A DNA stretch of 60,041 nt from Akkermansia muciniphila (GCA_945903605.1 CAMDOH010000006.1:1-60041); one strand, 5' to 3'; positions 2,489 through 50,462 are shown, counted from the first letter of the stretch. Notes: a model not told the origin generated them from the sequence alone. A program made the numbers and translations.

Positions 2489-3346
2489 ATGGCACTCTCC
2501 GACCAAACTAGTCTCCGGGTGGTTCTCTATGAAGGCAATGGCTCCGCAGCACTCGCCGCTGAAGATCGCTTTGCCGCGCTGAATCAATTGCTGGAACGCG
2601 GATTTGCCGTTACGCGGGCGAGCGGTCTGGGTGCAGTGGCTCCCGCCGATCGAACTTCGTTGCTCGTGCTCGGCCGTTTCGAAAATGGTCAGGCGCCGAA
2701 GGCGGATGCAGGCACCGACGGCACTCGCATCGAATTCCGTGATATCGCCGAACTAGACGCTGCAGCGATTGTGGAATCCGTTGAGCAGACGCGCGCGAAA
2801 ACGAACACCTTCCAACACGGCGAATGGAAGCCGTGGTTTCCGGTGATCGATTATGATCGCTGCACGAACTGCATGCAGTGTCTCTCCTTTTGTCTTTTCG
2901 GCGTGTACGGCGCGGACGGCGAAGGGAAAATTCAAGTTCAGAACAACGACAACTGCAAAACGAATTGCCCCGCCTGCAGCCGTGTTTGCCCCGAGGCGGC
3001 CATCATGTTTCCCAAGTACAAGGCCGGGCCGATCAACGGCGACGTGGTGCGCGATTCCGATCTGCAGAAGGAGAAGATGAAGGTGGACATCTCATCGCTG
3101 CTTGGCGGCGATGTGTACTCGCTGCTGCGCCAACGGAGCGATGATGCGAAGGCTAGATTCAGCAAGGAGCGAGACGATAAGAAGGCGCTTGCCGAACGGC
3201 AAAAGTGCCTGACCAAACTCGCGAAGGCTGGCGACATCCCCGTTGAAGTGCTGATGAGTCTGCCGTCCCCCGATGAAATTCTCCGCCGGGCTGGAGAGGC
3301 AAAAGCAAAGGCCGCTGCTGCTCTGTTGTTGCAGGCGAAGAATTGA
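2489..3346 (+). CDS. 2x[4Fe-4S] ferredoxin-domain protein with unknown N- and C-terminal regions
   Basis: CTNCMQCLSFC and CKTNCPACSRVCP cluster motifs. Confidence 0.85.
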   Translation: MALSDQTSLRVVLYEGNGSAALAAEDRFAALNQLLERGFAVTRASGLGAVAPADRTSLLVLGRFENGQAPKADAGTDGTRIEFRDIAELDAAAIVESVEQTRAKTNTFQHGEWKPWFPVIDYDRCTNCMQCLSFCLFGVYGADGEGKIQVQNNDNCKTNCPACSRVCPEAAIMFPKYKAGPINGDVVRDSDLQKEKMKVDISSLLGGDVYSLLRQRSDDAKARFSKERDDKKALAERQKCLTKLAKAGDIPVEVLMSLPSPDEILRRAGEAKAKAAAALLLQAKN

Positions 3347-3347
3347 A

Positions 3348-4028
3348 ATGATCCGCCACATGAACGCCCTCACTTCCATCTCCGAGCTGTCCCGCCGCAA
3401 ATTTATCGGTCGTGCGGCGCTGGGCACGGCCTTCTCCGCTGTGCCCGGACTGTTTGCCGAAACACTCACCTCCACGCCACGGCAGACCGAAGGGCCGTTC
3501 TATCCGGACAAACTGCCGCTCGATACGGACAACGATCTGCTCATCCTCAACAACGCCGCGACACACGCGCTTGGCGAGGTGACCTATCTCAGCGGACGTA
3601 TCCTCGATGCTCGTGGAGAACCGATTCGCGGCGCGCTCGTCGAGATCTGGCAGTGCGACGCCAACGGCGCGTATCTACACACACGCAGCGGCAACGCGGC
3701 CAAACGCGACGGAAATTTTCAGGGCTTCGGCCGCTTCATCACCGGTTCGACTGGCGAATATCTGTTCCGAACCATCAAGCCCGTGCCATATCCTGGCCGC
3801 ACGCCGCACATCCATCTCAAAGTTCGGCGCGGCGGCAAGGATTTACTCACCACGCAATGTTATGTAAAGGGGCACGAGGGCAATGAAAAGGACGGCATCT
3901 GGAAGAGCGTCAAAGACGAGAAGGCGCGCGCGGCCATCACGATTGATTTTGCGCCGATCAAAGGCGCGAAGGCCGGCGAGTTGGCTGCCAAGTTTGATGT
4001 CGTTCTTGGCTTCACTCCGGAAGGCTGA
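3348..4028 (+). CDS. Intradiol ring-cleavage dioxygenase-like protein (protocatechuate 3,4-dioxygenase family) with Tat signal
   Basis: SRRKFIG twin-Arg signal; EGPFY, VEIWQCDANGAY, TIKPVPYPGRTPHIH (Tyr/Tyr/His/His Fe ligands). Start is ATG 3348 or 3360. Confidence 0.85.
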   Translation: MIRHMNALTSISELSRRKFIGRAALGTAFSAVPGLFAETLTSTPRQTEGPFYPDKLPLDTDNDLLILNNAATHALGEVTYLSGRILDARGEPIRGALVEIWQCDANGAYLHTRSGNAAKRDGNFQGFGRFITGSTGEYLFRTIKPVPYPGRTPHIHLKVRRGGKDLLTTQCYVKGHEGNEKDGIWKSVKDEKARAAITIDFAPIKGAKAGELAAKFDVVLGFTPEG

Positions 4029-4126
4029 CGCTCCTTGCGTGGCCAGACTTTGTTGAAACAAATTCTCGACCGTTGCGTCTGATTCCCTAATACTGCGGCC
4101 TTGCCAGTCATCATCGCAGAATAAAT

Positions 4127-5884
4127 ATGATTTCACAGAGCATTCCACTGGTAATCCCGCGGCCTGTCCCGAAGCAGATTTTCCGACCGCCCAAGAAAAA
4201 CATTCCGCAGACGGAAATTCAGCGGAACTTTATTTTAAACGCCGTGCGGAATTACGTTGCCGAGTTCAATCCGGTGCCGCCGATGCCGATGGAGGATCTG
4301 AAAGTACTCGCCGACCAGCTCATTGCCACACTCAAGCTCGATCCCATTTATCGCGATTACATTGGCGTCCTTCTCAACAACGAAATGTGGCGCGAGACGC
4401 TTGCCACCATTCCTTACGAACGCCGCCTGTTGCTACTGCCCAAATGTCTGCGAGTGGAAAGCAAATGTCCGGCGCCCTTCGATGAGTTTGGTCTGCTATG
4501 CAAACAGTGCGGACTTTGCACCATTCAAGATCTGCAAGGTGAGGCCGAACGACTGGGCTATCCGGTGCTCGTTGCCGAAGGATCAGCCATCGTGATGAGC
4601 CTCATTCAGACCGGCAAAATCGAAGCGATCGTCGGCGTGAGTTGCCTTTCAGTTTTGGAACGCGCCTTTCCGTACATGGAAGCGGCTGCTATTCCCGGCG
4701 TGGCCATACCGCTCCTGCAGGACGACTGCATGGATACCAACGTGGACATCGATTGGGTGTGGGACTACATCCACTTGACCAGCGACGACAAAACCCGGCG
4801 GCTGGATCTGGCGGCGTTGCGCGAAGAAGTCGATTCGTGGTTCACGACGGAATCGCTGGGGGAAATTCTGGGCGCTGCCGAAGGCGAGACGGAACGGATC
4901 GCGTCTGAATGGCTCTCTCGTGCCGGGAAACGCTGGCGTCCCTTTCTCACCGTGGCGGCATTCAAAGCACTGCGCGATTCCACAGACGCCCCGTTGCCGG
5001 AGGATTTGAAGAAGATCGCCGTGGCCATCGAGTGCTTCCACAAAGCATCGCTCATCCATGATGACATCGAAGACAACGATGCGGTGCGATATGGAGAAAA
5101 AACATTGCACGAAGAATACGGCGTTGCCATCGCGCTCAACGTCGGCGATTTGCTCATCGGCGAGGGCTATCGACTCATTGGCGATTCATCCATTTCTGCA
5201 GAACAAAAGACCGCGATGCTGACCGTCGCCGCCGAAGGCCAGCGGCTCCTTTGTCGAGGACAAGGCGCTGAACTCGTTTGGGCACGCCGCCCTTCACCGC
5301 TGAGTTCGCTGCAAGTGCTCGATATTTTCCGCAAGAAAACTGCGCCCGCCTTCGAAGTCGCACTGCAACTCGGCGCGATTTATGCCGGCACCGCGAAGCA
5401 CGAAGAAGTTTCAGAAGTCATCGCCGCGTACAGCGAGGCCCTCGGCATCGCCTACCAAATCCGCGACGACTTGAGCGATCTGGGAACTGGAGGCGATACG
5501 AATGACATCGCAGGGCTGCGGCCGAGCCTGCTGCTTGCCGTCGCTCACGAACGCGCGAATGACGAGACGAAGAAAAATATCCTCCATGCGCTCTGGCACC
5601 GGCAATCGACAGCCGGAGTGAACGCCGAACAGATCGAGGCCATTTATGTTGAGCTAAAAGCCGACGATCGTGCCCGCACGTTGCTTGAAACTTACAAAGA
5701 AGAGGCCATCCGCTCACTGCGCGACCTTGAAAATGCGAACCTGAAAGGACTGCTCCGGCGCGTGCTGGGCAAGATTTTCAACGACACAGAAATCAAAGGC
5801 TGGTGCAAAGAATTCGAGCAGAAGAATGGGATTGAGCGTTCGGCCGCTCCCGTCGCTGCGTCTGAACCGGCCATCGAAACGTAA
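4127..5884 (+). CDS. DUF116-like Cys-rich domain fused to trans-polyprenyl diphosphate synthase
   Basis: N-terminal LPKCLR..C..CKQCGLC..GVSC..QDDC; C-terminal GKRWRP, FARM ASLIHDDIED, GQ, KT and SARM YQIRDDLSD. Confidence 0.85.
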   Translation: MISQSIPLVIPRPVPKQIFRPPKKNIPQTEIQRNFILNAVRNYVAEFNPVPPMPMEDLKVLADQLIATLKLDPIYRDYIGVLLNNEMWRETLATIPYERRLLLLPKCLRVESKCPAPFDEFGLLCKQCGLCTIQDLQGEAERLGYPVLVAEGSAIVMSLIQTGKIEAIVGVSCLSVLERAFPYMEAAAIPGVAIPLLQDDCMDTNVDIDWVWDYIHLTSDDKTRRLDLAALREEVDSWFTTESLGEILGAAEGETERIASEWLSRAGKRWRPFLTVAAFKALRDSTDAPLPEDLKKIAVAIECFHKASLIHDDIEDNDAVRYGEKTLHEEYGVAIALNVGDLLIGEGYRLIGDSSISAEQKTAMLTVAAEGQRLLCRGQGAELVWARRPSPLSSLQVLDIFRKKTAPAFEVALQLGAIYAGTAKHEEVSEVIAAYSEALGIAYQIRDDLSDLGTGGDTNDIAGLRPSLLLAVAHERANDETKKNILHALWHRQSTAGVNAEQIEAIYVELKADDRARTLLETYKEEAIRSLRDLENANLKGLLRRVLGKIFNDTEIKGWCKEFEQKNGIERSAAPVAASEPAIET

Positions 5885-5905
5885 ATTCGCCGGGTTCGTC
5901 AGGAC

Positions 5906-6790
5906 ATGAGCGTTCGGCTCCAGATGCTTCAAGTGGCACGGCTCGCCGGGCGGTCACTCGGCGATTCGTCCGAATTGGTCCGCGACTTTTTCCGCAGCCA
6001 GCTCTCGCCTGAAGGCGCCGGGTTCGATCGCGCAGGTCGCCCGGATCTGTACTACACCGTTTTCGCTTTGAACGGCTTCACCGCATTGCAAATGGAATTG
6101 CCGACGTCGCGAACCGAATCGTGGCTGCGCAGTTTCAACGATGGTGCTGGCTTGGATCTTGTCCATTTGAGTTCGCTGGCGCGTTGCTGGACTGCCATCG
6201 AGAGGAAACTGCCGTCGGATCTCGCCAAGAAATTGCTGGCGCGCATCGAAACTTTTCGCAAGCCCGACGGCGGTTACGATGTGAATCCTAAAAACCCGCA
6301 CGGCACGGCGTACGGAGCTTTTCTCGCTTTGGGCGCCTATCAGGACTTCGGCAAACTACCCCCGAAACCACTGAGCATCGTGCAAAGTTTGAAGCGGCTG
6401 GAGTCGGCTGATCATGCTTGGAACAACGCGCCGGGAATGCCAGTCGGCTCGACGAATCCCACGGCGGGCGCAGTCACGTTGCTGCGCCAGCTTCACTTGC
6501 CCGTCAATGATGCCGTCGGCCATTGGTTGCTTGCGCAGTTGCATCCGCAAGGCGGGTTCCTGGCTGTTCCCGGCGCACCGATGCCCGACTTGCTTTCCAC
6601 GGCGACAGCGTTGCATGCACTTTCGACACTTGAATTGCGACTCTCCGCCGAAGCACGCGAACGCTGTCTCGATTTTGTGGATTCGTTGTGGAGCGCGAAA
6701 GGCGGCTTTCACGGCCACTGGGCCGATGATCATCTGGATGCCGAATACACCTTCTACGGATTACTGGCGCTCGGCCATCTGAGTGTCTGA
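5906..6790 (+). CDS. Prenyltransferase/squalene-cyclase repeat (alpha-alpha barrel) protein
   Basis: Repeated Q/R-x-x-x-GG(F/Y) units with DLYYT, DLLST and DAEYTFYG helices. No DxDD cyclase motif. Confidence 0.75.
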   Translation: MSVRLQMLQVARLAGRSLGDSSELVRDFFRSQLSPEGAGFDRAGRPDLYYTVFALNGFTALQMELPTSRTESWLRSFNDGAGLDLVHLSSLARCWTAIERKLPSDLAKKLLARIETFRKPDGGYDVNPKNPHGTAYGAFLALGAYQDFGKLPPKPLSIVQSLKRLESADHAWNNAPGMPVGSTNPTAGAVTLLRQLHLPVNDAVGHWLLAQLHPQGGFLAVPGAPMPDLLSTATALHALSTLELRLSAEARERCLDFVDSLWSAKGGFHGHWADDHLDAEYTFYGLLALGHLSV

Positions 6791-12849: not shown

Positions 12850-14676
12850 ATGTCACGCCATCCACAGTTGACCGCCAATATCGATCCGACCTTTGGTGCA
12901 AAATCGCGAACCACTTGGGAAATTGTGGCTCGCGTGGCCATCTACCTCCGCCCTTATCCGTGGATGGCGCTGGGGACGGTCAGTTGTGCGTTGTTTTCAT
13001 TGGCCTTCGCCTTCTCGTATCCAAAACTGACGCAACACGTCATCGACGAAGTGATCGGCAATAAACGCACCGACCTACTTGCGCCCGTCATGCTTGTATT
13101 GTTGGGAGCGTTTGCGATGAGGGAGCTATTCAACAGCCTGCGTATTCGCATCAACAACGAACTTGAGCAGCACGTGATTCTCGACATGCGACGCGATGTC
13201 TATTCGCGGCTACAACGATTGCCCGTGGGCTACTTCGACCAGCGCGCCACAGGCGATTTGATGACTCGCGTGATCGAAGACGTGAACAGTGTCGAGCGAC
13301 TGCTAATCGATGGCACCGAGCAGGGAAGCGTCGCCATCTTGAGCATCATCGGCGTACTTGTGATCCTATTTTTGACCAGCGCAAAGTTAGCGCTCGTGGC
13401 GCTCTCACCCGTTCCGTTCCTGATAATCGGCGCGCTTTGGTACACGCTCACGGCTCATCACCGCTATCGCAAACAACGCGTCGCCTCCAGCGCGATGAAC
13501 GCGCTTCTGATGGACAACCTGCAAGGTGTGCGCCAAATCAAGGCATTCGGTCGCGAGCCGCACGAGGACGCGCGATTTCTTGACCGCGCCGAATCGCTTC
13601 GCGAGGGAACGCTCTCCGTGATGCGCGCGTGGGCGCTGTATTCACCGGCGATGACTCTGATCGCCTCTCTGGGAACGGGCCTTGTCCTTTGGGTCGGCGG
13701 CGGCATGGTGATCGCTGGCGAAATGACCGTCGGGACATTGATCGGGTTCATTTTTTATCTCGCGCTATTTTATGAGCCAGTCCGACAGTTGCACGGACTG
13801 AATCAGTTGCTGCAAGCCGCTCGCGCCGCCGGCGAACGTGTGTTCGACATTCTCGACACAACGGCGGAGGAAAGGCCACCGACCATCGCCACTTCAAAAC
13901 TTGATCATGCGCGCGGCGAGGTTGTGTATGAAAAAGTCTGTTTCAGCTACGGCTCAGAGCGGACGACTTTGAAAGACATTTCACTTCATGCCAAACCGGA
14001 TGAGATGATTGCGCTGGTTGGGCCGACTGGCGCGGGGAAAAGCACACTCGTGAATCTGCTCCCGGCATTTTACGAACACACCGCTGGCATAATCCGAATT
14101 GACGGTGTCGATATCCGATCGATGCGGCTCGAGTCGCTCCGTTCTCAAATCAGTGTGGTGAGTCAGGAACCGTTTCTTTTCAATGGATCGGTCCGTGAGA
14201 ATATTTTGTACGGAAAACTCGATGCCTCGGAAACTGAGTTGGCTACGGCCGCGAGTGCGGCCAACTGTCATGAATTCATCACTCAACTTTCTGAAGGCTA
14301 CGATACGCATGTGGGCGAGCGCGGAGTGAAGCTGAGCGTGGGAGAAAAGCAGCGTGTCTCCATTGCTCGCGCGCTGCTTGCCGACCGCCCCATCCTGATT
14401 CTTGATGAAGCCACGGCCAGCGTGGACACCGCAACCGAACGACTGATTCAAGAAGCGCTGGAGCGGCTGATGAAAGGTCGCACGAGTTTTGTCATCGCAC
14501 ACCGGCTCTCAACTATTCGTCATGCAAGCCAGATTCTCGTGATGCGACACGGTGAGATTGCTGAGCGCGGCACGCATGAAGAATTGATGGCGGTGAACGG
14601 CCTGTACGCCCAGCTTGCTCGAGTGCAGAACGTCACTTTCATCGAGGAGCAATTCGAGAAGCTGTCTCTTGTTTGA
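12850..14676 (+). CDS. ABC exporter, fused permease + ATPase (MsbA-like)
   Basis: TM domain followed by GPTGAGKST, LSVGEKQR, ILDEATASVD, IAHRLST. Confidence 0.93.
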   Translation: MSRHPQLTANIDPTFGAKSRTTWEIVARVAIYLRPYPWMALGTVSCALFSLAFAFSYPKLTQHVIDEVIGNKRTDLLAPVMLVLLGAFAMRELFNSLRIRINNELEQHVILDMRRDVYSRLQRLPVGYFDQRATGDLMTRVIEDVNSVERLLIDGTEQGSVAILSIIGVLVILFLTSAKLALVALSPVPFLIIGALWYTLTAHHRYRKQRVASSAMNALLMDNLQGVRQIKAFGREPHEDARFLDRAESLREGTLSVMRAWALYSPAMTLIASLGTGLVLWVGGGMVIAGEMTVGTLIGFIFYLALFYEPVRQLHGLNQLLQAARAAGERVFDILDTTAEERPPTIATSKLDHARGEVVYEKVCFSYGSERTTLKDISLHAKPDEMIALVGPTGAGKSTLVNLLPAFYEHTAGIIRIDGVDIRSMRLESLRSQISVVSQEPFLFNGSVRENILYGKLDASETELATAASAANCHEFITQLSEGYDTHVGERGVKLSVGEKQRVSIARALLADRPILILDEATASVDTATERLIQEALERLMKGRTSFVIAHRLSTIRHASQILVMRHGEIAERGTHEELMAVNGLYAQLARVQNVTFIEEQFEKLSLV

Positions 14677-14694
14677 GAGAATCGCAGCAGTCGA

Positions 14695-16839
14695 TCAGAT
14701 CAGATTTTTCAGTTCGCGATGGTTGACTTTGCCTGTCCCCAATTTCGGAATATCCCGCACATATTTCAACTCGCGCGGCAGGCAAAGATTGCTCAAGCCT
14801 TTGGCGCGGATGGCGGCTCGGATTTCCTCCAATGTGACCAATGAGTTGTTGGTGACGGCGATCATGACTTCGCCTTTGTCAATATCGGGGCGCGTGGCAA
14901 CGACCACTTCGGCATTCGCCGCCACATGCACAAAAACTCCGGCCAACGCTTCTTCTACAGCCGTGAGGCTCACCATCTCTCCACTGATTTTGGCGAATCG
15001 TTTGAGCCTGCCCAGCACGTGAATGCAGCCATCGGCATCTACTTTGACGATGTCGCCAGTGTCATACCAACCGCCGAGCGCCTGGAATTGCGCATTGGCA
15101 TCGGGGTTGAGATAGCCCTTCATGATGTTGGGTCCGCGGACAAAGAGGCGGCCGCCTTCGGCAACTCCTTCAACGCTTTCCAGTTTCCATTCGATGCGCG
15201 GCAAGATGCGCCCCGCTGTGCCGTGCATGATGTCACCAGGCGAATTGAAGGAGACAATCGGGCTGCATTCTGTGGCGCCGTAAGCTTCAAGAATTCGCAC
15301 GCCGAAACGCCGGCCCCAAATGGCGGCTGTGGATTCCTGAACTTTTTCCGCGCCTGCAAAGAGACAGCGGAGCGAGCGGAAATCATACGAGTGCGCCTTG
15401 CGCGCATAGCCATTGAGGAAGGTGTTCGTGCTGATCATGATTGTGCAATTGCGGTCGCTGAAGAGCATCGGAACGAGTCGGTAATGCAGTGGATTCGGGT
15501 AGAGAAAACAATAGATTCCGCGCACCAATGGAACCAACGTGCCGATGACGAACCCGGCACTGTGGAAAATGGGAAGGCAGTTGAAGAGGCGATCGCGGTC
15601 GCCAATGTCCGCCGCTGATAGAATTTGCCGAATGTTGGCGAGCAGATTTTGATGCGTCAATTCAACTGCCTTTGGCTGGCCTTCCGACCCGCTGGTGAAA
15701 AGAATGACGGCAGTGTCGGCAAAAGGAGTGTACCGCATCTGCGCCCAAGGCAGGAAACGATGGGCCAGCGCGGTCTTCAACTGGCTCATCTTGGGAATCT
15801 GTTTCGCGACATCTTCCAAATAAAGGAGCTGAATGCCGGCGGCTTGGAGCGGGCTGAGATCTAGTTTCTGTCGTTCGATAAACGCACGTGAGGTGACGAT
15901 CTGCCGTAGTCCAGCCAGATGAGCGCAGGCCAGCATCATGGGCGTGCCTGTGGTGAAATTAAGAATGGCCGGCACTCTTCCCGCAATCCACAGACTGAGA
16001 AAGACGATTGGCGCAGCGTTCACATTAGGGAGCAGCACTCCAATTCGGTTGTCCGTGCCGCAGAGTGCCGACCATCGTTCGGCAAGTAGATCTGCCCGGA
16101 CAAATACTTCGCGGAAGGTGAGTGATTTGTAGGTGTGATCTTCCAATGCATCAGCATGAGGTTGGGTACGTGCGGATTCAGCGGCGGCGAGCAATACTGT
16201 CGGCTGCCCCAATTTCATTTCCACATCGAACCGTTGGGTGATCATTTCTTGTCGGATCCAATTGGTAAGTCGGCGACGGGTTTCCAACCCTGAAAGACCC
16301 ACAAATGTCGGCGGCTGTTTCACCTCGCTGTAGTGGGCGGATATTTTGGTGAACGTTTTCTTCCAACCGCTGTGCGGAGAAAGCAGCACGCGCTCCGTAC
16401 CGCGCAAATAACAGAAAATGACTCTGGCGCGACTCTTCTGAAGCAGAAAGCCGGCACCTTCAAAGATCCTCATCAACGAACCCGTTTGCGAAAGTCGACC
16501 TTCTGGAAATAAAAGTAGCCGGCCTCCAGAGGACAGATGTTCGGAAACGCGCTTGAGCGAATAGGGCGACGCGGTGTCGATGGGATAGGTGCGCCCGTTC
16601 ACCATCAGATAACGGTGCAGCCACGAAGCCTGGGCAGTGGTGCTGGAGGAGATAAAGCGCCAGTCGCCGTCCAAGTCGGCAAGAATGAATAGCCAGTCAA
16701 TCCAGGAAACGTGATTGGCCAAGAGTAGAATTGGCCCGGGCGTTTTCAGAACCTCAATATTGGTGGAGTGGAATCGGAACAACACGCGCAATAAAAACCG
16801 CGCGAACGGGCCAAATAGAAATCTCTCGAACCAGTTCAT
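14695..16839 (-). CDS. aas: Bifunctional lysophospholipid acyltransferase / acyl-ACP synthetase (Aas-like)
   Basis: NHVSWID and FPEGR (PlsC motifs); FTSGSEGQPK, YGATE, YDTGD, RFAKISGE and PKLGTGK (AMP-binding motifs). Confidence 0.9.
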   Translation of the reverse strand: MNWFERFLFGPFARFLLRVLFRFHSTNIEVLKTPGPILLLANHVSWIDWLFILADLDGDWRFISSSTTAQASWLHRYLMVNGRTYPIDTASPYSLKRVSEHLSSGGRLLLFPEGRLSQTGSLMRIFEGAGFLLQKSRARVIFCYLRGTERVLLSPHSGWKKTFTKISAHYSEVKQPPTFVGLSGLETRRRLTNWIRQEMITQRFDVEMKLGQPTVLLAAAESARTQPHADALEDHTYKSLTFREVFVRADLLAERWSALCGTDNRIGVLLPNVNAAPIVFLSLWIAGRVPAILNFTTGTPMMLACAHLAGLRQIVTSRAFIERQKLDLSPLQAAGIQLLYLEDVAKQIPKMSQLKTALAHRFLPWAQMRYTPFADTAVILFTSGSEGQPKAVELTHQNLLANIRQILSAADIGDRDRLFNCLPIFHSAGFVIGTLVPLVRGIYCFLYPNPLHYRLVPMLFSDRNCTIMISTNTFLNGYARKAHSYDFRSLRCLFAGAEKVQESTAAIWGRRFGVRILEAYGATECSPIVSFNSPGDIMHGTAGRILPRIEWKLESVEGVAEGGRLFVRGPNIMKGYLNPDANAQFQALGGWYDTGDIVKVDADGCIHVLGRLKRFAKISGEMVSLTAVEEALAGVFVHVAANAEVVVATRPDIDKGEVMIAVTNNSLVTLEEIRAAIRAKGLSNLCLPRELKYVRDIPKLGTGKVNHRELKNLI

Positions 16840-17464: not shown

Positions 17465-19729
17465 GTGTCAAAAAACTCTAATAATGGCTCTCATTCGCCA
17501 AGCCGCGCCACCTCATCGGACTTCTCCTGGCTGCCCCAAGACCAATGGCCATGGTCCACAGCTATTGTGCTGATGTCCGTAGTCTGGTTTTTCAGCGTGT
17601 TGGTTCGCCTAAATTGGATCGGCGACGCAACCCAGATTGACTCATTCATGTGGAATGGCGTTCCTCTCGTGACCACGAATGATAGCTACCTGTTCGGATC
17701 CATTGCGCAGAAGGCGATTGGTGGGACGGCATCAAACGTAGCCGACTGCCCGGGAATCTTGGATCATGGAATGATCACAGTGCTGCTGTTCGTGTCCGCC
17801 AAATGGACGGGCTTGAGCGTGGATACTCTGATGATCTGGCTGCCCGTATTCATCGGCGGAATAGTAGCGATCCCTGTTTTTCTGATTGGCCGACTCTTCG
17901 GTTCCACGCTGTGGGGATTTTGTGCCGCCGTGTTGGCGAGCGTGGCGCAGAGCTACTACAACCGTACGATGGCTGGATACTTCGACACGGATATGTTCTC
18001 CATCACTGTGCCCGCATTTGCCTTGTACTGTTTGCTTGCCGCGCACCGTAAGGAAAGTTTTGCATGGCTCACCGCTGGATCCGCCACTTTGTTCATCTAT
18101 CCTTTTTTTTATTTCCCCGGAGTGCCGATTGCTTATGCCTTGGCGCTCACCTTCGTAGGATTCCGGCTTCTGACTCGATTCCGACATCCGATGACATGGC
18201 AGTCCTTCTTACTCCTTGGACTGGCCGTGATGATTCTTGATGGATCAACGGGCAGAGCTATTGCGCGCGCCCCCTTGTTGTGGTTCGTGCGTGCAGCCAT
18301 CCTGTATGCAGCGTCAGTGATTCTTCAAAAGACTGCTGGCTCAATGCAAGTGCCATGGAGAAGTCGATCCGTGATGGCGGCCTGTGCGCTGACATGTCTG
18401 GGTGTGATTGTGTTCTCTGAACCGATCAAACACATTGGCCGTAGAACTTCTGAATACATTGGCGCGCGCTCCGAGCTATTGCCCCAATCTCCAGCGGATG
18501 GGCTGAATTTTTTCAAAGCTGGATCTTTGGTAGTCGAGGCGCAAACCGCCAACTCACTCCGCGAGAATATTGTCATCACGGCAAGGCGTGTGTCCGGTTC
18601 CCTCATTGGCGGAATTCTCGCAATTGCAGGTTTTGTTCTGCTCGTTTTTCACGCGAGAGAGTTTGCCATCGCTTTACCCTTCGTCGGATTTGCGTATCTG
18701 GCCATGCAGGGTGGGGAGCGATTCACTATTCATGCGGTGCCAATCGGAGCGCTTTCGGCCACGGCTATTTGCTTTTGGCTTCCAAACTTGATGATGAAGA
18801 AAGCGCCCGGCGCAGGGAAGATGATTGGCTTGGCCGTCTGCAGCCTCCTCCTTTTTGCCAATCTTCAACACGTCGCCGCGTATAAAACTTCTCCAGTGCT
18901 AGACAGCAAGTCCGTCGCCACACTGGCGCAAACTGCACCTAAGTCAGATGCAGGTGATTACCTGATCACTTGGTGGGATTATGGAACGGCGGCTTGGTAT
19001 TACTCCGGATTGAATACCGTCTGTAATCCCGGAAATCAAAACTCCGACATTTATCTCGTTGCTAAGATTCTCAATTCGCCATCGCAGGCACTTGCCGCAA
19101 ATCTGACGAAGGTCGCAATCGAGACTCACGCGGAAGCGTCACCCAGCCGTCCTGTGATTCGGCGACTGCTCAAGCCGCACGTCAAATCAATCGCTGGACT
19201 CGATGGGTTTTTCTCCGAGGTCAGTTCAACGAATTATTTGGCTCCGGCCAAAACCCGGGAGACATACCTGTTCCTCAATCATCAGATGTTAAATTTCATT
19301 CCCGCCATGCGACTTTTTAGTGAGCGGGATTTGTTGACCGGCGAGCCTCACCCCGGTCGTACGTTCATCTCATTTAACGATTGGAAAAGTGATGGCCAGA
19401 TTCTGCAGGCAACAAGGGGGGCCATTCGGATGCAAGTGGACAGGAAAAATCTCCAAGCCACGCTTGATGATGGACGCCAATTCGCTCTCAACAACTTTGA
19501 CTACATTCCGGCTGCGCAAGCAGGCCGACTGTCCATCAAAAGGCAGTCAGGCCATCCGACATCTCCGTTCCGTTTGGTCATTCGCGAAGAACCGCCGCTC
19601 TGCATTCTCATGGAAGAAGACATCTTCCATTCCAATTTTGTGCAGATGTATTTGTACGAATCCTTCGATGCAGAACGGTTCGAGCGCGTAGCGGGAAACC
19701 CGTACGCCATCATGTACCGCGTGAAATAA
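17465..19729 (+). CDS. pglB: STT3/PglB-type oligosaccharyltransferase (N-glycosylation)
   Basis: TTNDSY, SYYNRTMAGYFDTDM, VVE (TIxE-equivalent), RFTIHAVP, WWDYG; multi-TM N-domain plus soluble C-domain. GTG start is uncertain. Confidence 0.9.
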   Translation: MSKNSNNGSHSPSRATSSDFSWLPQDQWPWSTAIVLMSVVWFFSVLVRLNWIGDATQIDSFMWNGVPLVTTNDSYLFGSIAQKAIGGTASNVADCPGILDHGMITVLLFVSAKWTGLSVDTLMIWLPVFIGGIVAIPVFLIGRLFGSTLWGFCAAVLASVAQSYYNRTMAGYFDTDMFSITVPAFALYCLLAAHRKESFAWLTAGSATLFIYPFFYFPGVPIAYALALTFVGFRLLTRFRHPMTWQSFLLLGLAVMILDGSTGRAIARAPLLWFVRAAILYAASVILQKTAGSMQVPWRSRSVMAACALTCLGVIVFSEPIKHIGRRTSEYIGARSELLPQSPADGLNFFKAGSLVVEAQTANSLRENIVITARRVSGSLIGGILAIAGFVLLVFHAREFAIALPFVGFAYLAMQGGERFTIHAVPIGALSATAICFWLPNLMMKKAPGAGKMIGLAVCSLLLFANLQHVAAYKTSPVLDSKSVATLAQTAPKSDAGDYLITWWDYGTAAWYYSGLNTVCNPGNQNSDIYLVAKILNSPSQALAANLTKVAIETHAEASPSRPVIRRLLKPHVKSIAGLDGFFSEVSSTNYLAPAKTRETYLFLNHQMLNFIPAMRLFSERDLLTGEPHPGRTFISFNDWKSDGQILQATRGAIRMQVDRKNLQATLDDGRQFALNNFDYIPAAQAGRLSIKRQSGHPTSPFRLVIREEPPLCILMEEDIFHSNFVQMYLYESFDAERFERVAGNPYAIMYRVK

Positions 19730-34510: not shown

Positions 34511-37009
34511 TTAGTGATTGAACAAAAATTCTTTTGTGTTGAATAGCGCCCAGATCACGTCCTCGAAGGCTTCCTGCTTGGCGGCCGCGGCGGCTGCGTC
34601 TTTTTTATCGGCTGTCTTTTTCTTGATGTGTTCGGTGGCGAGCGTCACTTCGCTGGTACCGGGCTCGCGCGAGAACGCCATGAGATACAACTCGCGAACG
34701 CGCTCTTCATCGGGTCGCGTGTCCTTGGCCAGTCGCGCAGCCGTGCCGGTCGATGCGGCAAGTTTCGTCTGGATGTCGCGCGAGTTGAGCAGATGGAGGC
34801 TCTGCGCAAGGCTGGCATCCGATGAACGCTCGCATTCGCAGGAACTGGAGGAATCGGGCCGGCCGAACACGGTGAGGAAGTAGCTGGACGCGTTATAGCT
34901 GTTATCGGGCAACTGCACGGCGCGCGTTCCCGCTGGCAGACTATCGAATGCGCTTTGCGAGCCCGTGATGCGATCAACAGAATCAAACAACACTTCGGCC
35001 GTGAGGCGCTTGGGATAATAGCGGGCGAAGTAGTGGCGGTCGCGCGCGTTGTGTTCGTTGGGCACTGCGCTGAGCTGGTACGTCGTGGATGTGCAAATGG
35101 CGCGAATCAGCCCCTTCATGTCAAAACCCGTCTTGATGAAGTTCTGCGCCAGACTATCCAGCAGCTCGGGATTGATGGCCGGGTTGGTTTCACGCATGTC
35201 GTCTTCCGGCTCCACAAGGCCGCGGTTCATGAAATGTTTCCAGTAACGGTTCACGAGCGTGTGCGCAAAAAACCGGTTCGAGGGTTGCGCCATCCAATCG
35301 GCCAACGCCTGTCGCGGGTCATCATCAGCGCTGAGATCGTCCAGCGGTTTCTCTCCGAGTCCCGCTGGGGCAACGGACTGATTGTTTTTCTTGTTCGTCG
35401 TGCGAGCTACGCCGCGACGATGGAAAACAACTTCCTCGCCGGGCATCGCGCCGGGCTTGCGGGCCACTTGCGAGAAAAACGCGGTGAAGCTGTAGTAATC
35501 CTGCTGACTCCATTTTTCGTACGGATGATGGTGGCACTGGGCGCATTGCAAACGCGTGCCGAGGAAGAGTTGCGCTGTGTCCTCCATCTGCGTCTGCGCT
35601 GTTTTCGCCTGACGATACCACGCCACTGCCGGGTTCTGCGTCATGTCGCCGGATGCCGCCAAAATCTCGCGTGCGAATTGGTCGTACGGTTTGTTCGCCG
35701 CGAAGCTGTCGCGAATCCAGCCGTGGAACGCGAAGGTGCCGCGTGTGTGATTGACGTTTTCGCGCTTGTTGCGGAGCAGCGCCGCCCATTTGTTGGCAAA
35801 GAAATCCGCGTAATCCGTGCTGGCCAGCAGTGTATCTACCCAGCGATCGCGCTTGGCGGGGTCTTTGCTCGCGAGAAATTCGCGGGATTCTTCACCCGTC
35901 GGCAATCGCCCAGCAATGTCCAGCGAAGTGCGCCGCAGAAATGTTGCGTCGTCACAAATATCCGAGGCGGGCATTCCGACGGACACCAGTTTTCGGAACA
36001 CAATTTCATCAATGAAATTGCGGGCGGCAGGCAGTTTTGCGACGGGCGCACCGAGCGGAACCGTGGCCTGAAACACGCCGACTTTCGCCTGATAACGAAC
36101 CATCACAGCCACGTCGCCGGGCTGGTCAAATAGCTTTAGTTTTCCGTCAGCCTGCGCTTCGCCGACTTCTTTGTCGTTCGCTTCGTAAACGGCCGCGTGC
36201 GTCACATCCTGCCGGCTACCGTCGGAGTACACCGCCGTCACCGTCAACTGCTGCTCTTTTCCCATCGCCAGCGTGCGCGATTTGGGGAACACCTCGATGC
36301 TCGCAATTTTCGGGTCTGTTTCATTGCCGAGCGGGGCGCCCAATCCAATCCAGCGCACGAGCAGTTTGTAATCGTACGAACCCGGCTCCACTCGTTTGCC
36401 GCCGCCGTGCGGAATGATGGAGGCGGCTTTTTGCACGAGCAAGCTCTGCTCGGGTGCGGCAGGGCTCAACCGGCGTCCGCGCGATTCCTTGACGAGATAT
36501 TCGTAGTCTTCCTGCGGCTCGAAGCCGAGCAGCGAGAGGCGGAATCCGTTTTGGCCGCCCGATTTTCCGTGGCATCCGCCGCTGTTGCAGCCGGCCTTGG
36601 TGAAGATGGGGACGATTTGATTTGCGAAATTGATGGGCAGATGTTCCTTCGCCTTCTCAACTTGAATGCTGAGCGCTGACTGCAATCCCTCTTTGCTCTT
36701 GGCGGTGATGGTCGCCGTGCCATCGGCCAGCGGCGTGACCAATCCCTGCGCATCCACTTGCACGATGCCAGCGGGCGCCGATGTGTAGCTGACTTCGCGG
36801 GCGTAATCACGCAGCGAGCCGCCCGCAAATTTTGCGGTGGCCACAAGTTGCTGGCGACTGTCCGCGCCAATCATCTTGATCGCTTTTCCGTCTTGGCCTG
36901 CCTGCGCCTGCAATTGCAGTTCGACGGGCTTGCCCAAATCCGCCGGAGCGGCCTGCAATGCGACTGCGGATACAAGGGCCATCCATATCGCGAGTGTTTG
37001 GTTCTTCAT
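34511..37009 (-). CDS. Secreted Ig-like + DUF1549/DUF1553 (PSCyt2/PSD1) protein with c-type heme motif
   Basis: Signal peptide; two Ig-like modules; CNSGGCHG, FLRRTSLD, CAQCHHHP, VNRYW, FGRP..CECER, EFLFNH. Confidence 0.9.
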   Translation of the reverse strand: MKNQTLAIWMALVSAVALQAAPADLGKPVELQLQAQAGQDGKAIKMIGADSRQQLVATAKFAGGSLRDYAREVSYTSAPAGIVQVDAQGLVTPLADGTATITAKSKEGLQSALSIQVEKAKEHLPINFANQIVPIFTKAGCNSGGCHGKSGGQNGFRLSLLGFEPQEDYEYLVKESRGRRLSPAAPEQSLLVQKAASIIPHGGGKRVEPGSYDYKLLVRWIGLGAPLGNETDPKIASIEVFPKSRTLAMGKEQQLTVTAVYSDGSRQDVTHAAVYEANDKEVGEAQADGKLKLFDQPGDVAVMVRYQAKVGVFQATVPLGAPVAKLPAARNFIDEIVFRKLVSVGMPASDICDDATFLRRTSLDIAGRLPTGEESREFLASKDPAKRDRWVDTLLASTDYADFFANKWAALLRNKRENVNHTRGTFAFHGWIRDSFAANKPYDQFAREILAASGDMTQNPAVAWYRQAKTAQTQMEDTAQLFLGTRLQCAQCHHHPYEKWSQQDYYSFTAFFSQVARKPGAMPGEEVVFHRRGVARTTNKKNNQSVAPAGLGEKPLDDLSADDDPRQALADWMAQPSNRFFAHTLVNRYWKHFMNRGLVEPEDDMRETNPAINPELLDSLAQNFIKTGFDMKGLIRAICTSTTYQLSAVPNEHNARDRHYFARYYPKRLTAEVLFDSVDRITGSQSAFDSLPAGTRAVQLPDNSYNASSYFLTVFGRPDSSSSCECERSSDASLAQSLHLLNSRDIQTKLAASTGTAARLAKDTRPDEERVRELYLMAFSREPGTSEVTLATEHIKKKTADKKDAAAAAAKQEAFEDVIWALFNTKEFLFNH

Positions 37010-37022
37010 AATGGTTCTGTTG

Positions 37023-38318
37023 CTAAATGAGTTCTTTGATGGGTTGCATTCCTTGGTCGACCAAGAATTGCGGGCGGCCGGAGAGATCGGTGATGGTTGT
37101 CTCGTTTGCATCGATGCCGATGTTGCGATACATCGTGGCGAAGATTTCCTGAATGTGAACTGGGCGGTCGCTTGCATCGCCGCCTTCGCGGTCGGTAGCG
37201 CCGATGATCTGACCGGTCTTCATGCCGCCGCCAGCCAGCAATGTTCCCATCACGCGCGGCCAATGGTCGCGGCCGGGATTGGCGTTGGAATTCACGCGCG
37301 GCGTGCGACCGAACTCGCCCCAAACCACGACGGTCACGTCGTTGAGCATGCCTCGGTCCGCCAAGTCGCCCACCAACGCGCTCAGCCCGATGTCCAACTG
37401 TGGCAATTGGTTTTTCAAATGGGTAAAATTGTTTTCATGCGTATCCCAACCGCCCCAACTAAGGGTGACAAAGCGCGCGCCAGCCTCCACCAATCTCCGC
37501 GCTGTGCAAAATGATTGCACTTGGTCTCCCGGCGTCTTGTATCGCTCGAGCACCTTGGGATCTTCCTTTTTCAGATCCAACGCATCGACCAATCGGGTGG
37601 ATGTGATGACGCCAAATGCCTGCTGATTGAACGCGTCGAATCCCTCCATCTTGCGTGAGGTGTCGGCGTCGCGCCGCATCCGATCCAAGCTCACGAGCAG
37701 TCCCTTGCGATCTTCCAGACGGTCTGCATTGATGCCGTTGAGCGTCAAATCCGTGCGGCCTTCGCCACCGGGGGCAAATGCCTTGTAAGGCGTGCTCAGA
37801 AATCCTGGCCCAACGGCGTGGCCGTTGAGATCCATATACGCAGGCGCTCCATTATTGCCTGTACCCTGCAATTTGCTCATCACCGAACCGATGCTGGGCC
37901 AGCCTCCCGATGGCATCGGGCGCAGGCGCGAGCGTCCCGTCATGCAGTCAAATGGTTCATGAACTTCCGTTTGTCCGATGGTAGATCGAACGGCCACGAA
38001 TTTATCGAACATGCGCGCCACTCGCGGGAAATGTTCGCAAATGCGAATGCCGGGCACGTTGGTATCGATGGCAGAAAAGTCACCGCGATATTCTTTGGGC
38101 GCTTGTTCTTTGATATCCCACATGTCTGTGTGGGATGGGCCGCCCGGCAGATAAACCATGATGATGGCTTTCTGCCGTTGGGCTGAACCCGCCGCCGATT
38201 CGGCGCGCAATAATTGCGGCAGAGCGAGGCCGCCCATCGCCAAGCCGCCCACTTGAAGGAAATTGCGCCGCGACAACCCGTCGCAAAACCGCGATCTCTT
38301 GCCGTATATTCTCAGCAT
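37023..38318 (-). CDS. DUF1501 domain protein
   Basis: CDGLSRRNFLQ; GGPSHTDMWD, WDTH, GEFGRTP, GRDHW. Confidence 0.93.
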   Translation of the reverse strand: MLRIYGKRSRFCDGLSRRNFLQVGGLAMGGLALPQLLRAESAAGSAQRQKAIIMVYLPGGPSHTDMWDIKEQAPKEYRGDFSAIDTNVPGIRICEHFPRVARMFDKFVAVRSTIGQTEVHEPFDCMTGRSRLRPMPSGGWPSIGSVMSKLQGTGNNGAPAYMDLNGHAVGPGFLSTPYKAFAPGGEGRTDLTLNGINADRLEDRKGLLVSLDRMRRDADTSRKMEGFDAFNQQAFGVITSTRLVDALDLKKEDPKVLERYKTPGDQVQSFCTARRLVEAGARFVTLSWGGWDTHENNFTHLKNQLPQLDIGLSALVGDLADRGMLNDVTVVVWGEFGRTPRVNSNANPGRDHWPRVMGTLLAGGGMKTGQIIGATDREGGDASDRPVHIQEIFATMYRNIGIDANETTITDLSGRPQFLVDQGMQPIKELI

Positions 38319-38342
38319 AGTCGTTGTTCTATTAAACGACGC

Positions 38343-38369
38343 TGGCCGACGAAAGCTCTCCGTCGGCCA
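38343..38369. other. Intergenic 9-bp stem-loop between tandem DUF1501 genes (mRNA stabiliser or weak terminator)
   Basis: TGGCCGACG-AAAGCTCTC-CGTCGGCCA; no strong U-tract. Confidence 0.5.
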
Positions 38370-38389
38370 CGCGTGTTGTTTTCCGCCAA

Positions 38390-39685
38390 CTAAATCAACT
38401 CGCGGATCGGTCCGTAACCGTGACTGACCAGGTGCTGCGGCCGCCCCGACAAGTCCTGAACGGTCGTCTTATTCGCGTCGATCCCCACGTTGTTATAGAG
38501 CGTGGCGAACACTTCAGCGATGTGAACAGGCCGGCTGGCCGGCTCGCCGCCCACGCGATCGGTTTCGCCGATTGCCTGACCGGTCTTCATGCCGCCGCCC
38601 GCAATCAATGCGCCCATGACTCGCGACCAGTGATCGCGTCCGGAATTCATGTTGACGCGCGGTGTGCGGCCAAATTCGCCCCACACAACGACCGTCACAT
38701 CTTTTTCCATGCCGCGCTCGTGCAAATCCTGAACGATGGCCGAAACGCCTCTGTCCAATTCTGGCAATTGGTTTGAGAGCGTGCGGAAGTTGTTGCTGTG
38801 CGAATCCCAGCCGCCGAAGTTCAGCGTGACGAAGCGCGCGCCGGCCTCTACAAGCCTGCGGGCGACCAAGAAGTCTGTCAGTCGACGGCCTTTGCCGGCT
38901 TCGTAGCGCTTGGCGGATTGTGTGGGTTCTTTAGACGATTCCAGCGCCTTGAGCATCTTGCTGGACGTGATCACATCGAACGCCTGATCATTGAATGCGT
39001 CGATGCCGGTCATTTTTCCGGAGCCGTCCACATCGCGACGGAAGGTGTCGAAGCTCGAAAGGAGCGATTTGCGATCGTCCAGACGATCCAGCGTGACGCC
39101 GTTAAGCGTCATGTCCGCCCGACCGCGGCCACTGGGTGAAAAGGCCGCATTCGCGCCGCCGAGGAAGCCGGGCATTCCTGCCGAGCTGCCAGATACGGCC
39201 ACATACGGAGGCGTACCGTAAAGTCCTTGTCCTTTCAATTTGGAGAGCGTCGAGCCGATGGACGGCCAACCTCCTGGAGGCTGCTGTTCGCGCTTGTTGC
39301 GGCCGGTCATGCAGCTGAATGAGCTGTGATCGTCGGCCTGACCCACGACCGTGCGGAGCGCCACAAATTTGTCGAAGTTGGCCGCGACATTCGGCAGATG
39401 CTCGCAGATGCGCACTCCGGGCACTTTCGTCGAGATGGCAGAAAAGTCGCCACGGAATTCCTTCGGCGCGTTTTCCTTGATGTCGTACATGTCGGTGTGC
39501 GACGGCCCGCCCGGCAGATAAATCATGATGATGGCCTTGTGGCCATTTCGAATGCCAGACTGGGATTCTGCTCGAAGCAGATCAGCCAGCCCCATACCGC
39601 CCATTCCGAGCGCGCCCACTTTGAGGAAGTTTCTCCGCGACACTCCGTCGCAGAACGACTGGTTTTTACCGAGGATTGTCAACAT
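38390..39685 (-). CDS. DUF1501 domain protein
   Basis: CDGVSRRNFLK; GGPSHTDMYD, WDSH, GEFGRTP, GRDHW. Confidence 0.93.
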   Translation of the reverse strand: MLTILGKNQSFCDGVSRRNFLKVGALGMGGMGLADLLRAESQSGIRNGHKAIIMIYLPGGPSHTDMYDIKENAPKEFRGDFSAISTKVPGVRICEHLPNVAANFDKFVALRTVVGQADDHSSFSCMTGRNKREQQPPGGWPSIGSTLSKLKGQGLYGTPPYVAVSGSSAGMPGFLGGANAAFSPSGRGRADMTLNGVTLDRLDDRKSLLSSFDTFRRDVDGSGKMTGIDAFNDQAFDVITSSKMLKALESSKEPTQSAKRYEAGKGRRLTDFLVARRLVEAGARFVTLNFGGWDSHSNNFRTLSNQLPELDRGVSAIVQDLHERGMEKDVTVVVWGEFGRTPRVNMNSGRDHWSRVMGALIAGGGMKTGQAIGETDRVGGEPASRPVHIAEVFATLYNNVGIDANKTTVQDLSGRPQHLVSHGYGPIRELI

Positions 39686-39750
39686 ACGTGGTTTTGGGTT
39701 GTCTGTTTTATTTCGGAACGACGGACGGTGCTTCCTGGTGATTCAGATGT

Positions 39751-41091
39751 TCATATTAGCTCGCGCATTGGCGGGCAGTCGGCATCGACCAAATGCTGCG
39801 GGCGGCCGCTGAGGTCGTTGACATTGGTCTTGTGCACATCGATGCCAAGGCCGTGATAAAGCGTCGCGAATACTTCGCCGAATTTGACCGGACGATCCAC
39901 TGCCTCGCCGGCAATGCGGTCGGTCGAACCGATAACTTGTCCGTGCCTCAAGCCGCCGCCAGCAAGCAGCGCGAAGGAAACATTCGGCCAGTGATCGCGC
40001 CCTGCGCCGTTGTTGATCTTGGGCGTGCGACCAAACTCGCCCCAAACAACCACCGACACATCCTTGTCCAACCCACGCTGGTGAATGTCCGTAATCAGCG
40101 CGCTCAACCCTTGATCAAGCAACGGTAAATCCTGACGCAGCGCGCCGAAGTTGTCGCCGTGATGATCCCAGCGGCTGAAGGCGAGCGTCACGCAACGCGC
40201 ACCGGCTTCAACCAATCGCCGGGCAGCAAGAAATTGTTCCATCAATTTCGGCCCGCCATCATCACGATTCTTTGAGTCGCCCTTGCCGTAACTCGCGCGC
40301 ACCGTCGGATCTTCCTTCGAAACATCGAGCGCGTCCATCAGGCGACTGGAGGTCAGCACGCCCAATGCCTGTTCGTTGAAAACGTCCAGTCCTTCCATGA
40401 GCCGGCTTTGGTCGGCGTCTCGACGGAAACGGTCGAAGCTCGAGAGTAAAGATTTGCGGTCGGAGAGACGGTCGAGTGTGACGCCGTTGAGCACCATGTC
40501 TTCCATGCCGCCGCCTTTGTTGGGCTGGAATGGCGCGTGGGCAGGCCCGAGGAATCCGGACACGCCGTTGTCAGACCACGGCGCATGTCCCATTTTCGGC
40601 GCAAGCCCAATGAAGGGCACGATGTCGCGATTGGTGCCACCGCCAATTTTCGAGAGCACTGAGCCGATTGAAGGCCATCCGCCCGGCGGTTGATTTCTTT
40701 CTGTGCGGCCGGTGTTGCACTGAAAGGCGTAGTGACTGCCTGTCGCGCCCACCATGGAGCGGATGATCGAGCACTTGTCCATCAGCTTGGCCATCTTCGG
40801 CAGGTGCTCGCAAATCTGGATGCCATCGACATTGGTGTTGATGGGATTGAAAGCGCCGCGAAATTCACTCGGTGCGTCCGGCTTCAGATCGAACATGTCC
40901 TGATGCGAGGGGCCGCCCGGAAGAAAAATCATGATCACGGCTTTGTGGCCAAGTCGTGTGCCTGCTTTTGCCTCCGCACGGAGCAATTGCGGCAAGGCCA
41001 TTCCGCCGAGGCCGAGCGAGCCGATCCTCAAAAAATTGCGGCGCGTTACGCCGTCGCACAGTTTGTGGGCTGATCCAATGACTTTCAACAT
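39751..41091 (-). CDS. DUF1501 domain protein
   Basis: [17 protein letters not shown]; [26 protein letters not shown]. Confidence 0.93.
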
Positions 41092-41151
41092 AGCCGCATT
41101 TGCCTTTCGGTCCGCTTGTTCGACGTTTGATGTTCTGGGATTAGTCACCGA

Positions 41152-48396: not shown

Positions 48397-48503
48397 GGCG
48401 GAACGTTAATCGAAATCCACGCACCGAACCACCAAGAAACAGCCGCGCACTCTCTCTCGTCTCCGCAGTTGTGTTGCGTGCTCCCGTGATTATAGTGCGT
48501 TCC

Positions 48504-49712: not shown

Positions 49713-49724
49713 ACGTTGCTGCGG

Positions 49725-50414: not shown

Positions 50415-50462
50415 GAGTTTCGCTTTGCCGCGCGCGCGCATTTGCGCGACATTGCCAGCGCC

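Follow-up and report, generated by a model that had tools for sequence, protein, structure and literature searches.

A ferredoxin, DUF116-prenyl synthase and toroid-barrel gene neighbourhood of Verrucomicrobiota as a candidate route to cyclic terpenoids

Introduction

What do four co-directional genes at nucleotides 2489 to 6790 of a 60-kb stretch of DNA deposited under Akkermansia muciniphila (GCA_945903605.1 CAMDOH010000006.1:1-60041; 60,041 nucleotides, one strand, hereafter the window) make, and do they make it together? They encode a ferredoxin, an intradiol-dioxygenase-like protein, a fusion of a DUF116 domain with a trans-prenyl diphosphate synthase (hereafter the fusion) and a single-domain alpha/alpha-toroid of the prenyltransferase fold (hereafter the barrel), and a preliminary description of the window had proposed all four as members of one isoprenoid pathway. 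Here, we found that the ferredoxin, the fusion and the barrel are the part of a conserved Verrucomicrobiota module that has stayed together in the window. The proposal thus holds for three of the four genes, which are co-conserved neighbours across the phylum, and fails for the dioxygenase-like gene, which lies outside the module. The preliminary description had also foreseen a link to a radical S-adenosylmethionine (SAM) gene; it had missed the strongest clue, a class II cyclase with a DxDDTA motif that is encoded directly 3' of the barrel in many relatives. Our reading, which we hold tentatively, is that the module is devoted to making a cyclic terpenoid from a precursor other than squalene, with tailoring by iron-sulfur and radical chemistry.

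Results

Are the genes of the window neighbours elsewhere? A genome scan anchored on an alignment of 93 barrel sequences matched at least 600 stretches, 592 of which were confirmed, and the best 80 loci were kept with one genome per species. The loci were judged to be of the Verrucomicrobiota type by gene content and similarity, though the titles of L001, L002, L007, L017, L021, L024 and others name, for example, Bifidobacterium, Proteobacteria, Limnocylindria, Chromulinivoraceae or Akkermansia muciniphila. The named best homologues of barrel and fusion are mostly from Verrucomicrobia or Pedosphaera, and the nearest protein-atlas clusters of both families are from Verrucomicrobiota and Planctomycetota. 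A gene was counted as present at tblastn identity of at least 35% and coverage of at least 25%; open reading frames (ORFs) of the loci were called with a codon-usage score and clustered, and the cluster representatives were scanned with family models.

In 36 of the 61 loci whose upstream sequence reaches 3.5 kb or more, the fusion lies 5' of the barrel on the same strand, within 300 nt in 27 of the 36, and a partial synthase stands at the edge of 10 of the 19 shorter loci. Of the fusion loci, 27 have 6 kb or more of upstream flank; the ferredoxin lies within 6 kb 5' of the barrel in 22 of these 27 and anywhere upstream in 24. Synthase, barrel and ferredoxin are thus conserved as neighbours, on which the preliminary description had made its proposal depend. 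Because the adjacency of fusion and barrel recurs across a phylum-wide sample, it is more than a matter of chance. In a maximum-likelihood tree of 80 barrels (79 loci and the window), 47 rows are fusion-adjacent and 25 are not; a minimum of 10 changes is required to explain the distribution, and supported branches force 6 of these. Fusion-adjacent barrels stand on either side of the deepest split. The tree therefore fits an ancient linkage with repeated losses. As the rows are kin, the outcome of shuffling them cannot be read as a probability.

The junction between the two genes varies. In L028 (9378-9973) and also in L066, L067 and L075, fusion and barrel are separated by a two-gene insertion that resembles a toxin-antitoxin pair and consists of an ORF of 65-80 aa and a Fic/DOC-family ORF of about 130 aa; the junction thus tolerates insertions. 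L001 (5355-6593) and, at the same place, L002 carry an ORF of about 400 aa between fusion and barrel that has no Pfam match, where the window has 21 nt only.

In the relatives, the genes of the window belong to a fuller module, which runs on one strand in the order GcvH-like protein, CobW-like GTPase, Cys-rich protein, ferredoxin, radical SAM enzyme, fusion, barrel and cyclase, with a NifS-like cysteine desulfurase gene divergent from it and with overlapping stop and start codons at several junctions. Upstream flank of 8 kb or more is available for 24 fusion loci; of these, 22 contain the ferredoxin, 21 the Cys-rich protein, 18 each the GcvH-like protein and the radical SAM enzyme, 17 each the CobW-like GTPase and the cyclase, and 16 the NifS-like protein. 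The GcvH-like protein keeps the lipoyl-type Lys, the GTPase is CobW/HypB-like, and the in-cluster radical SAM enzyme has about 430 aa. The Cys-rich protein of about 140 aa (L021 5686-6105 and 17 other loci) is encoded directly 5' of the ferredoxin and contains C-x-C and three more conserved Cys; neither Pfam nor NCBIfam has a match for it, and the window lacks a homologue. Two of the window's DUF1501 genes occupy the place that the CobW-like and Cys-rich genes take 5' of the ferredoxin in relatives. Four DUF1501 genes and one DUF1549/DUF1553 (PSCyt2/PSD1) gene, all of families typical of the Planctomycetes-Verrucomicrobia-Chlamydiae (PVC) group, are spread over 1-2412 and 34511-41148.

In 19 of the 27 informative loci, a radical SAM gene lies between ferredoxin and fusion. 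The radical SAM gene at 48504, to which the preliminary description had pointed, encodes a counterpart with 62% identity over 389 aa to the in-cluster protein of L021, and judged by this identity the gene is displaced by 42 kb in the lineage of the window. Its product carries C-N-L-R-C-Q-G-C (CxxxCxxC) and C-terminal Cys residues of the SPASM/twitch type. The best NCBIfam models (NirJ2, AhbD, WgkB, HpnH and others) all score far under their cut-offs, and an assignment as anaerobic sulfatase maturase, MqnC/MqnE or HpnH was rejected, none being near its NCBIfam cut-off (HpnH, 39.7 bits against 225). On the plus strand 3' of this gene follow a 232-aa family-2 glycosyltransferase (49716-50414), a dihydrouridine synthase (50442-51569) and a xylose-isomerase-like TIM-barrel protein (51601-52968); family-2 glycosyltransferases of such small size often act on polyprenyl phosphates. 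The minus-strand ORFs at 48393-52902 have no Pfam matches and were discarded as antisense shadows of the plus-strand genes.

The dioxygenase-like gene behaves differently from its three neighbours. A homologue is present in only 2 of the 27 informative loci, L001 and L002, which are the closest relatives, and the N-terminus bears the twin-arginine motif SRRKFIG, so that the product is probably exported by the Tat system and periplasmic. On both grounds, we removed the gene from the proposed pathway; it looks like a recent lineage-specific insertion at the place where the radical SAM gene formerly sat. Its start is most likely the ATG at 3348 (Met26 of the ORF), one base past the ferredoxin stop, and with this start the 74-nt overlap with the ferredoxin disappears. 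The protein scores above the cut-off of the Dioxygenase_C family and stays under the equivalog cut-offs for protocatechuate and catechol dioxygenases (Table 1).

The four ORFs on the plus strand and the 21 nt between the synthase stop and the barrel start had been described correctly. We scanned 39 ORFs of the window (8 + 31) with Pfam. None of the four proteins reaches the cut-off of an NCBIfam model, and the barrel has no NCBIfam match at all.

Table 1. Coordinates and family matches of the four-gene stretch and of the radical SAM gene in the window (bit scores, with model cut-offs in brackets)
Feature	Position	Strand	Matches
Extended ferredoxin, 285 aa	2489..3346	+	Pfam Fer4_6 27.9, Fer4_2 26.4, Fer4_10 26.6 (all slightly over cut-off)
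Intradiol-dioxygenase-like protein	3348..4028 (open ORF from 3273)	+	PF00775 Dioxygenase_C 93.3 (27.3); TIGR02422 116.8 (296)
DUF116-trans-prenyl diphosphate synthase fusion, 585 aa	4127..5884	+	PF01976 + PF00348
DUF116 domain, aa 67-214	4325..4768	+	PF01976 120.9 (25)
Prenyl synthase domain, aa 256-497	4892..5617	+	PF00348 polyprenyl_synt 147.3 (27)
Single-domain alpha/alpha-toroid barrel, 294 aa	5906..6790	+	PF00432 Prenyltrans 41 (26.5)
Radical SAM enzyme, 402 aa	48504..49712	+	PF04055 49.7 (29.5)

The ferredoxin is built around a central 2x[4Fe-4S] domain (aa ~116-173), whose Cys motifs are kept across 23 aligned members. On the N-terminal side of this centre stands a domain of about 110 aa and on the C-terminal side a Lys/Glu-rich tail; neither has a family match. 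The NCBIfam matches of the ferredoxin are PorD/HgcB-like and all under cut-off.

Of 7999 candidate homologues of the fusion, 7181 match, and both domains are present in all 120 of the best listed homologues, which are 76-99% identical. In an alignment of 36 sequences, both Asp-rich motifs of the synthase domain, D312-D-I-E-D316 (nt 5060-5074) and D447-D-L-S-D451 (nt 5465-5479), are invariant, as are Ala307, Ser308 and Phe304 at positions -5, -4 and -8 relative to the first motif. The closest solved synthase is the geranylgeranyl diphosphate synthase of Pyrococcus horikoshii (1wy0, E 1.6e-25), with which the Asp-rich motifs align; it has Tyr at -5, where the fusion has Ala307, and Phe304 of the fusion sits one helical turn deeper. 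According to the 'molecular ruler' rule from mutagenesis of archaeal synthases, which we regard as unreliable, the residue before the first Asp-rich motif sets the chain length. By this rule, the Ala at -5 and the bulky Phe304 one turn deeper suggest that the product may extend beyond C20. No NCBIfam equivalog names a product class for the synthase domain at its cut-off (best 121.3 bits against 450).

The DUF116 part is the best-conserved stretch of the fusion. Its Cys residues 107, 114, 125, 128, 131, 173 and 201 are invariant and include C125-x2-C128-x2-C131; Cys560 in the invariant C-terminal tail is likewise fixed. The DUF116 Cys residues are a probable iron-sulfur site, made up of C-x2-C-x2-C and remote Cys. 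DUF116 has been predicted to be a flavodoxin-like, metal-binding domain of electron transfer in section 3.6 of Makarova et al. (2015, PMC5898192). The AlphaFold2 (AF2) model of fusion residues 1-235 is too poor for a fold search (mean predicted local distance difference test score, pLDDT, 59.8; core <50), a DUF116 profile run against solved structures returned only four unrelated chains (best E 0.031), and a search with residues 60-235 among shorter proteins gave truncated pieces of the fusion only and no stand-alone DUF116 diversity. A predicted complex of the whole fusion with the barrel scored 0.00 in a run made without controls and speaks neither way.

Which family does the barrel belong to? 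At E <=0.001, 5826 of 8000 scored candidates match it; a 50%-identity library holds 1632 representatives, 470 of them below 1e-30. The AF2 model from the 93-sequence alignment is a single, confidently predicted toroid (pLDDT 97.9; predicted template modelling score 0.94). In a Foldseek comparison of this model with the PDB, the beta chains of RabGGTase and GGTase-3 come first (E 2e-7 to 1e-6, TM 0.65-0.72), and further matches include small class II cyclases (8paj, MstE). Five columns are invariant in the 93 sequences, namely D228 (nt 6587-6589), T232, D278, E280 and G290, with D278 to E280 at nt 6737-6745.

The zinc site of the prenyltransferases is absent from the barrel, as the preliminary description had stated, though its register was wrong: it had set the sequence DAEY of the barrel at the place of DxCY. 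In the HMMER alignment, the zinc ligands D238, C240 and H290 of RabGGTase beta face D228, L230 and Y281 of the barrel, so that of the three ligands only Asp is retained, while Leu and Tyr stand in for Cys and His. It is D238-x-C240-Y that aligns with D228-L-L230-S, and DAEY (D278-Y281) aligns with D-P-F-H290. Most members of the family have DCEY at this place, and Ala279 is peculiar to the protein of the window.

The catalytic motif of the cyclases is missing as well. The translation contains no DxDD, as had been noted before. In a profile-profile comparison of the barrel with the neighbouring cyclase family, P-D228-L-L-S-T-A lies over P-D-A-D-D-T-A (probability 62.9%, E 7e-5), and only the first Asp is kept. 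At the start of one and the same helix, prenyltransferases have the zinc Asp-x-Cys and cyclases the acid motif. With its one toroid of 294 aa, the barrel does not have the two-domain (beta-gamma) architecture of class II cyclases either. It therefore shares a fold with the prenyltransferase-beta and cyclase families and fails the defining tests of both. The remaining acidic cluster D228/D278/E280 may serve in metal binding or diphosphate ionisation, or do no more than shape a binding funnel.

A cyclase gene lies within 2.7 kb 3' of the barrel in 24 of the 61 loci with enough downstream flank (16/36 with the fusion, 7/20 without it) and somewhere in the locus in 32 of 80. Since it follows the barrel in 7 of 20 loci that lack the fusion, the link between barrel and cyclase does not depend on the synthase. 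The cyclases have 580-640 aa (~610) with the N- and C-terminal domains of squalene-hopene cyclase (SHC). D-A-D-D is present in 19/19 full-length homologues and aligns with D374-V-D376-D377-T-A of a solved squalene-hopene cyclase. An assignment as true hopene cyclase was rejected on the score with the hopene cyclase model TIGR01507, 81.9 bits against a cut-off of 431.

Elsewhere in the window, a 714-aa protein that joins an acyltransferase domain to an AMP-binding enzyme domain (14695-16839, minus strand) is encoded next to a MarR regulator and is possibly a lipid re-acylation enzyme. A 754-aa homologue of STT3/PglB-type oligosaccharyltransferases (17465-19729, plus strand; PF21436 81.5 bits, PF02516 69.1 bits) would use a polyprenyl-linked glycan donor.

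Discussion

Starting from the observed domain content, motif integrity and gene linkage, we infer a chemistry of four steps for the module. The synthase domain, with its motifs intact, would elongate an all-trans, head-to-tail prenyl diphosphate, maybe beyond C20. The barrel, by its fold and its place in the gene order, would hold or process the prenyl chain without zinc or a class II acid and hand it to the cyclase. The cyclase, by its motif, would protonate and cyclise the chain. Finally, the ferredoxin, the Cys-rich DUF116 domain and the radical SAM enzyme may form an electron path for reductive or radical tailoring. Consistent with such a route, a figure legend places a DUF116 gene beside IspH, cyclase, HpnH and prenyl synthase genes in a Bipolaricaulota isolate.

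Where would this route stand among known cyclases? The SHC-like clade of PVC, Fibrobacteres-Chlorobi-Bacteroidetes (FCB), Spirochaetota and Acidobacteriota is described as a group of 550-700 aa without known function and as the sister group of epoxy-polyprenyl cyclases (2025 preprint, PMC12324236), and for SHC-like cyclases of Planctomycetes it has been reported that the critical catalytic residues are retained and that the genomic context hints at non-squalene precursors (Santana-Molina et al. 2020, PMC7306690). The cyclase of the relatives, itself encoded outside the window, has the PVC origin, the length, the DxDDTA motif and the distance from squalene-hopene cyclases in common with this clade and by description fits it.

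In the sporulenol route of Bacillus (heptaprenyl diphosphate synthase, YtpB, SqhC), as outlined in PMC7306690, a prenyl synthase likewise feeds a head-to-tail, non-squalene substrate to a cyclase of the SHC family through an intermediate enzyme. In the module, however, the barrel takes the place of YtpB and there is no YtpB-type enzyme, and the iron-sulfur and radical SAM components have no counterpart in the sporulenol route.

Another resemblance is to hopanoid clusters, in which squalene-hopene cyclase is accompanied by the radical SAM protein HpnH and the iron-sulfur protein IspH. Both the clusters and the module combine a class II cyclase with a radical SAM enzyme, iron-sulfur proteins and a prenyl synthase. 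Unlike hopanoid clusters, the loci contain no squalene synthase gene, and radical SAM enzyme and cyclase score far under the HpnH and hopene cyclase cut-offs.

Several points weigh against the terpenoid route. The 80 loci are the closer part of the barrel family and come from a single phylum, so that shared ancestry inflates the counts. No fusion is within reach of the barrel in 25 of the 61 loci and no cyclase follows it in 37 of the 61; linkage to the barrel is frequent and not obligatory. At E <1e-6, the window itself lacks counterparts of the genes for the cyclase and for the GcvH-like, CobW-like, Cys-rich and NifS-like proteins, and a cyclase elsewhere in its genome is hypothetical. The place of the cyclase in the SHC-like clade follows from description and not from a tree, and the role of the barrel is drawn entirely from its fold and gene order. 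For the chain-length step, a 2026 survey found that tail length is hard to foresee from sequence (PMC13386864). Finally, identity to relatives in the loci amounts to 71-86% for DUF116 and 57-81% for the synthase domain, compared with 61-64% for the UvrD helicase; with the fusion more conserved than UvrD, a core function fits better than a dispensable lipid.

This extreme conservation across the phylum is what one would expect if the fusion was a housekeeping enzyme, a general synthase of farnesyl or geranylgeranyl diphosphate or of quinone side chains, in which DUF116 and the ferredoxin provide redox coupling and the barrel is an accessory product-binding or chain-length factor. The fusion is indeed the only prenyl synthase in the 60-kb window, and its gene is still adjacent to that of the barrel in a lineage without radical SAM and cyclase neighbours. 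However, a supply of quinones or carrier lipids would not lead one to expect radical SAM and class II cyclase genes as recurrent neighbours, and no quinone-pathway gene was found among the scanned recurrent gene clusters of the 80 loci. The fusion also scores higher on models of short- and medium-chain synthases (114-121 bits) than on octaprenyl, heptaprenyl and solanesyl models (62-82 bits), which speaks for the terpenoid route. In addition, a single genome, L061, encodes a separate 341-aa synthase (13804-14829, minus strand) with 182-218 bits on the heptaprenyl, octaprenyl and solanesyl models, under their cut-offs. Some 9 kb separate this stand-alone gene from a pair of barrel and cyclase genes that lacks a neighbouring fusion. 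With these observations, the housekeeping function is weakened, and we consider it unlikely.

Could the barrel instead attach the fusion's prenyl product to an acceptor, be it a protein, a peptide or a small molecule, independently of zinc and by means of D228/D278/E280? Its nearest solved folds are the beta subunits of protein prenyltransferases (RabGGTase, GGTase-3, FTase), with which it has the single toroid of about 300 aa and the zinc-site Asp in common; the acidic cluster at the place of the zinc site is invariant, and the fuller module co-encodes small conserved proteins, of which the Cys-rich or the GcvH-like protein would be a candidate acceptor. The barrel differs from these subunits in being bacterial, in the replaced Cys and His ligands (two of the three zinc ligands) and in its linkage to synthase and cyclase. 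Nor is its residue basic at the positions aligned with Arg232 and Lys235 of RabGGTase beta, which we take to be diphosphate-binding. General family scans found no alpha subunit among the 39 ORFs of the window or the recurrent neighbours in the 80 loci, in line with what had been noted for the vicinity of the barrel, and the window contains none of the candidate acceptor genes. As the cyclase neighbour, too, favours cyclisation over transfer, a prenyl transfer is very unlikely.

The least probable explanation, that the genes have no shared function and are neighbours by inherited gene order only, is suggested by the single phylum of all loci, by the loss of adjacency in 25 of 61 and by a symporter-oxidoreductase-ApbE-UvrD block that is likewise syntenic in a sub-lineage, but the adjacency occurs across the deepest split in the tree of barrels while the flanking blocks are restricted to sub-clades, the coding regions of fusion and barrel are 21 nt apart here and overlapping or abutting in several relatives, and both proteins belong to isoprenoid-handling superfamilies.

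How much of this was described before? We found no account in the literature of the module of ferredoxin, radical SAM enzyme, fusion, barrel and cyclase or of the barrel family, in agreement with the earlier claim of an undescribed pathway; the supplementary context figure of PMC7306690 was not covered, and a prior depiction there is possible. Already in print are the odd genomic context of SHC-like cyclases and a mention of the DUF116-synthase fusion. Section 3.6 of PMC5898192 names Psta_0175 of Pirellula staleyi, a PVC bacterium as well, with the same two-domain architecture of DUF116 and polyprenyl synthetase, and describes DUF116 as Cys-rich with CxxCxxC, as found here. For archaeal DUF116 proteins, it gives two N-terminal membrane helices, whereas no long hydrophobic stretch was seen by eye in the fusion of the window. 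That section mentions the fusion only; here, we add its neighbourhood, its partner proteins and a candidate pathway.

In summary, to name the substrates and products of SHC-like cyclases would help to tie lipid fossils to organisms (PMC12324236 and PMC7306690). The gene order described here supplies concrete candidates for the partners of these enzymes, a dedicated prenyl synthase with an iron-sulfur domain, the barrel family, a ferredoxin and a radical SAM enzyme, and the question of what SHC-like cyclases do thus becomes testable by co-expression. It also gives a first functional context for DUF116 and reveals a bacterial branch of the prenyltransferase-beta fold without the zinc site and without the cyclase acid. 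In a bolder version of the terpenoid route, which as a whole we hold to be quite unlikely, the module would be the precursor-supply and tailoring machinery of the orphan SHC-like clade: the fusion would make a regular chain of C25-C30 or longer, the zinc-less barrel would present or unmask it for cyclisation of the class II type, the radical SAM enzyme would modify the product, and PVC bacteria would contain new polycyclic polyprenoid membrane lipids. Tricyclic terpanes have been proposed to derive from tricyclohexaprenol. If the bolder version is true, the lipids of PVC bacteria would be candidate biological sources of orphan cyclic terpane biomarkers, such as these tricyclic terpanes.

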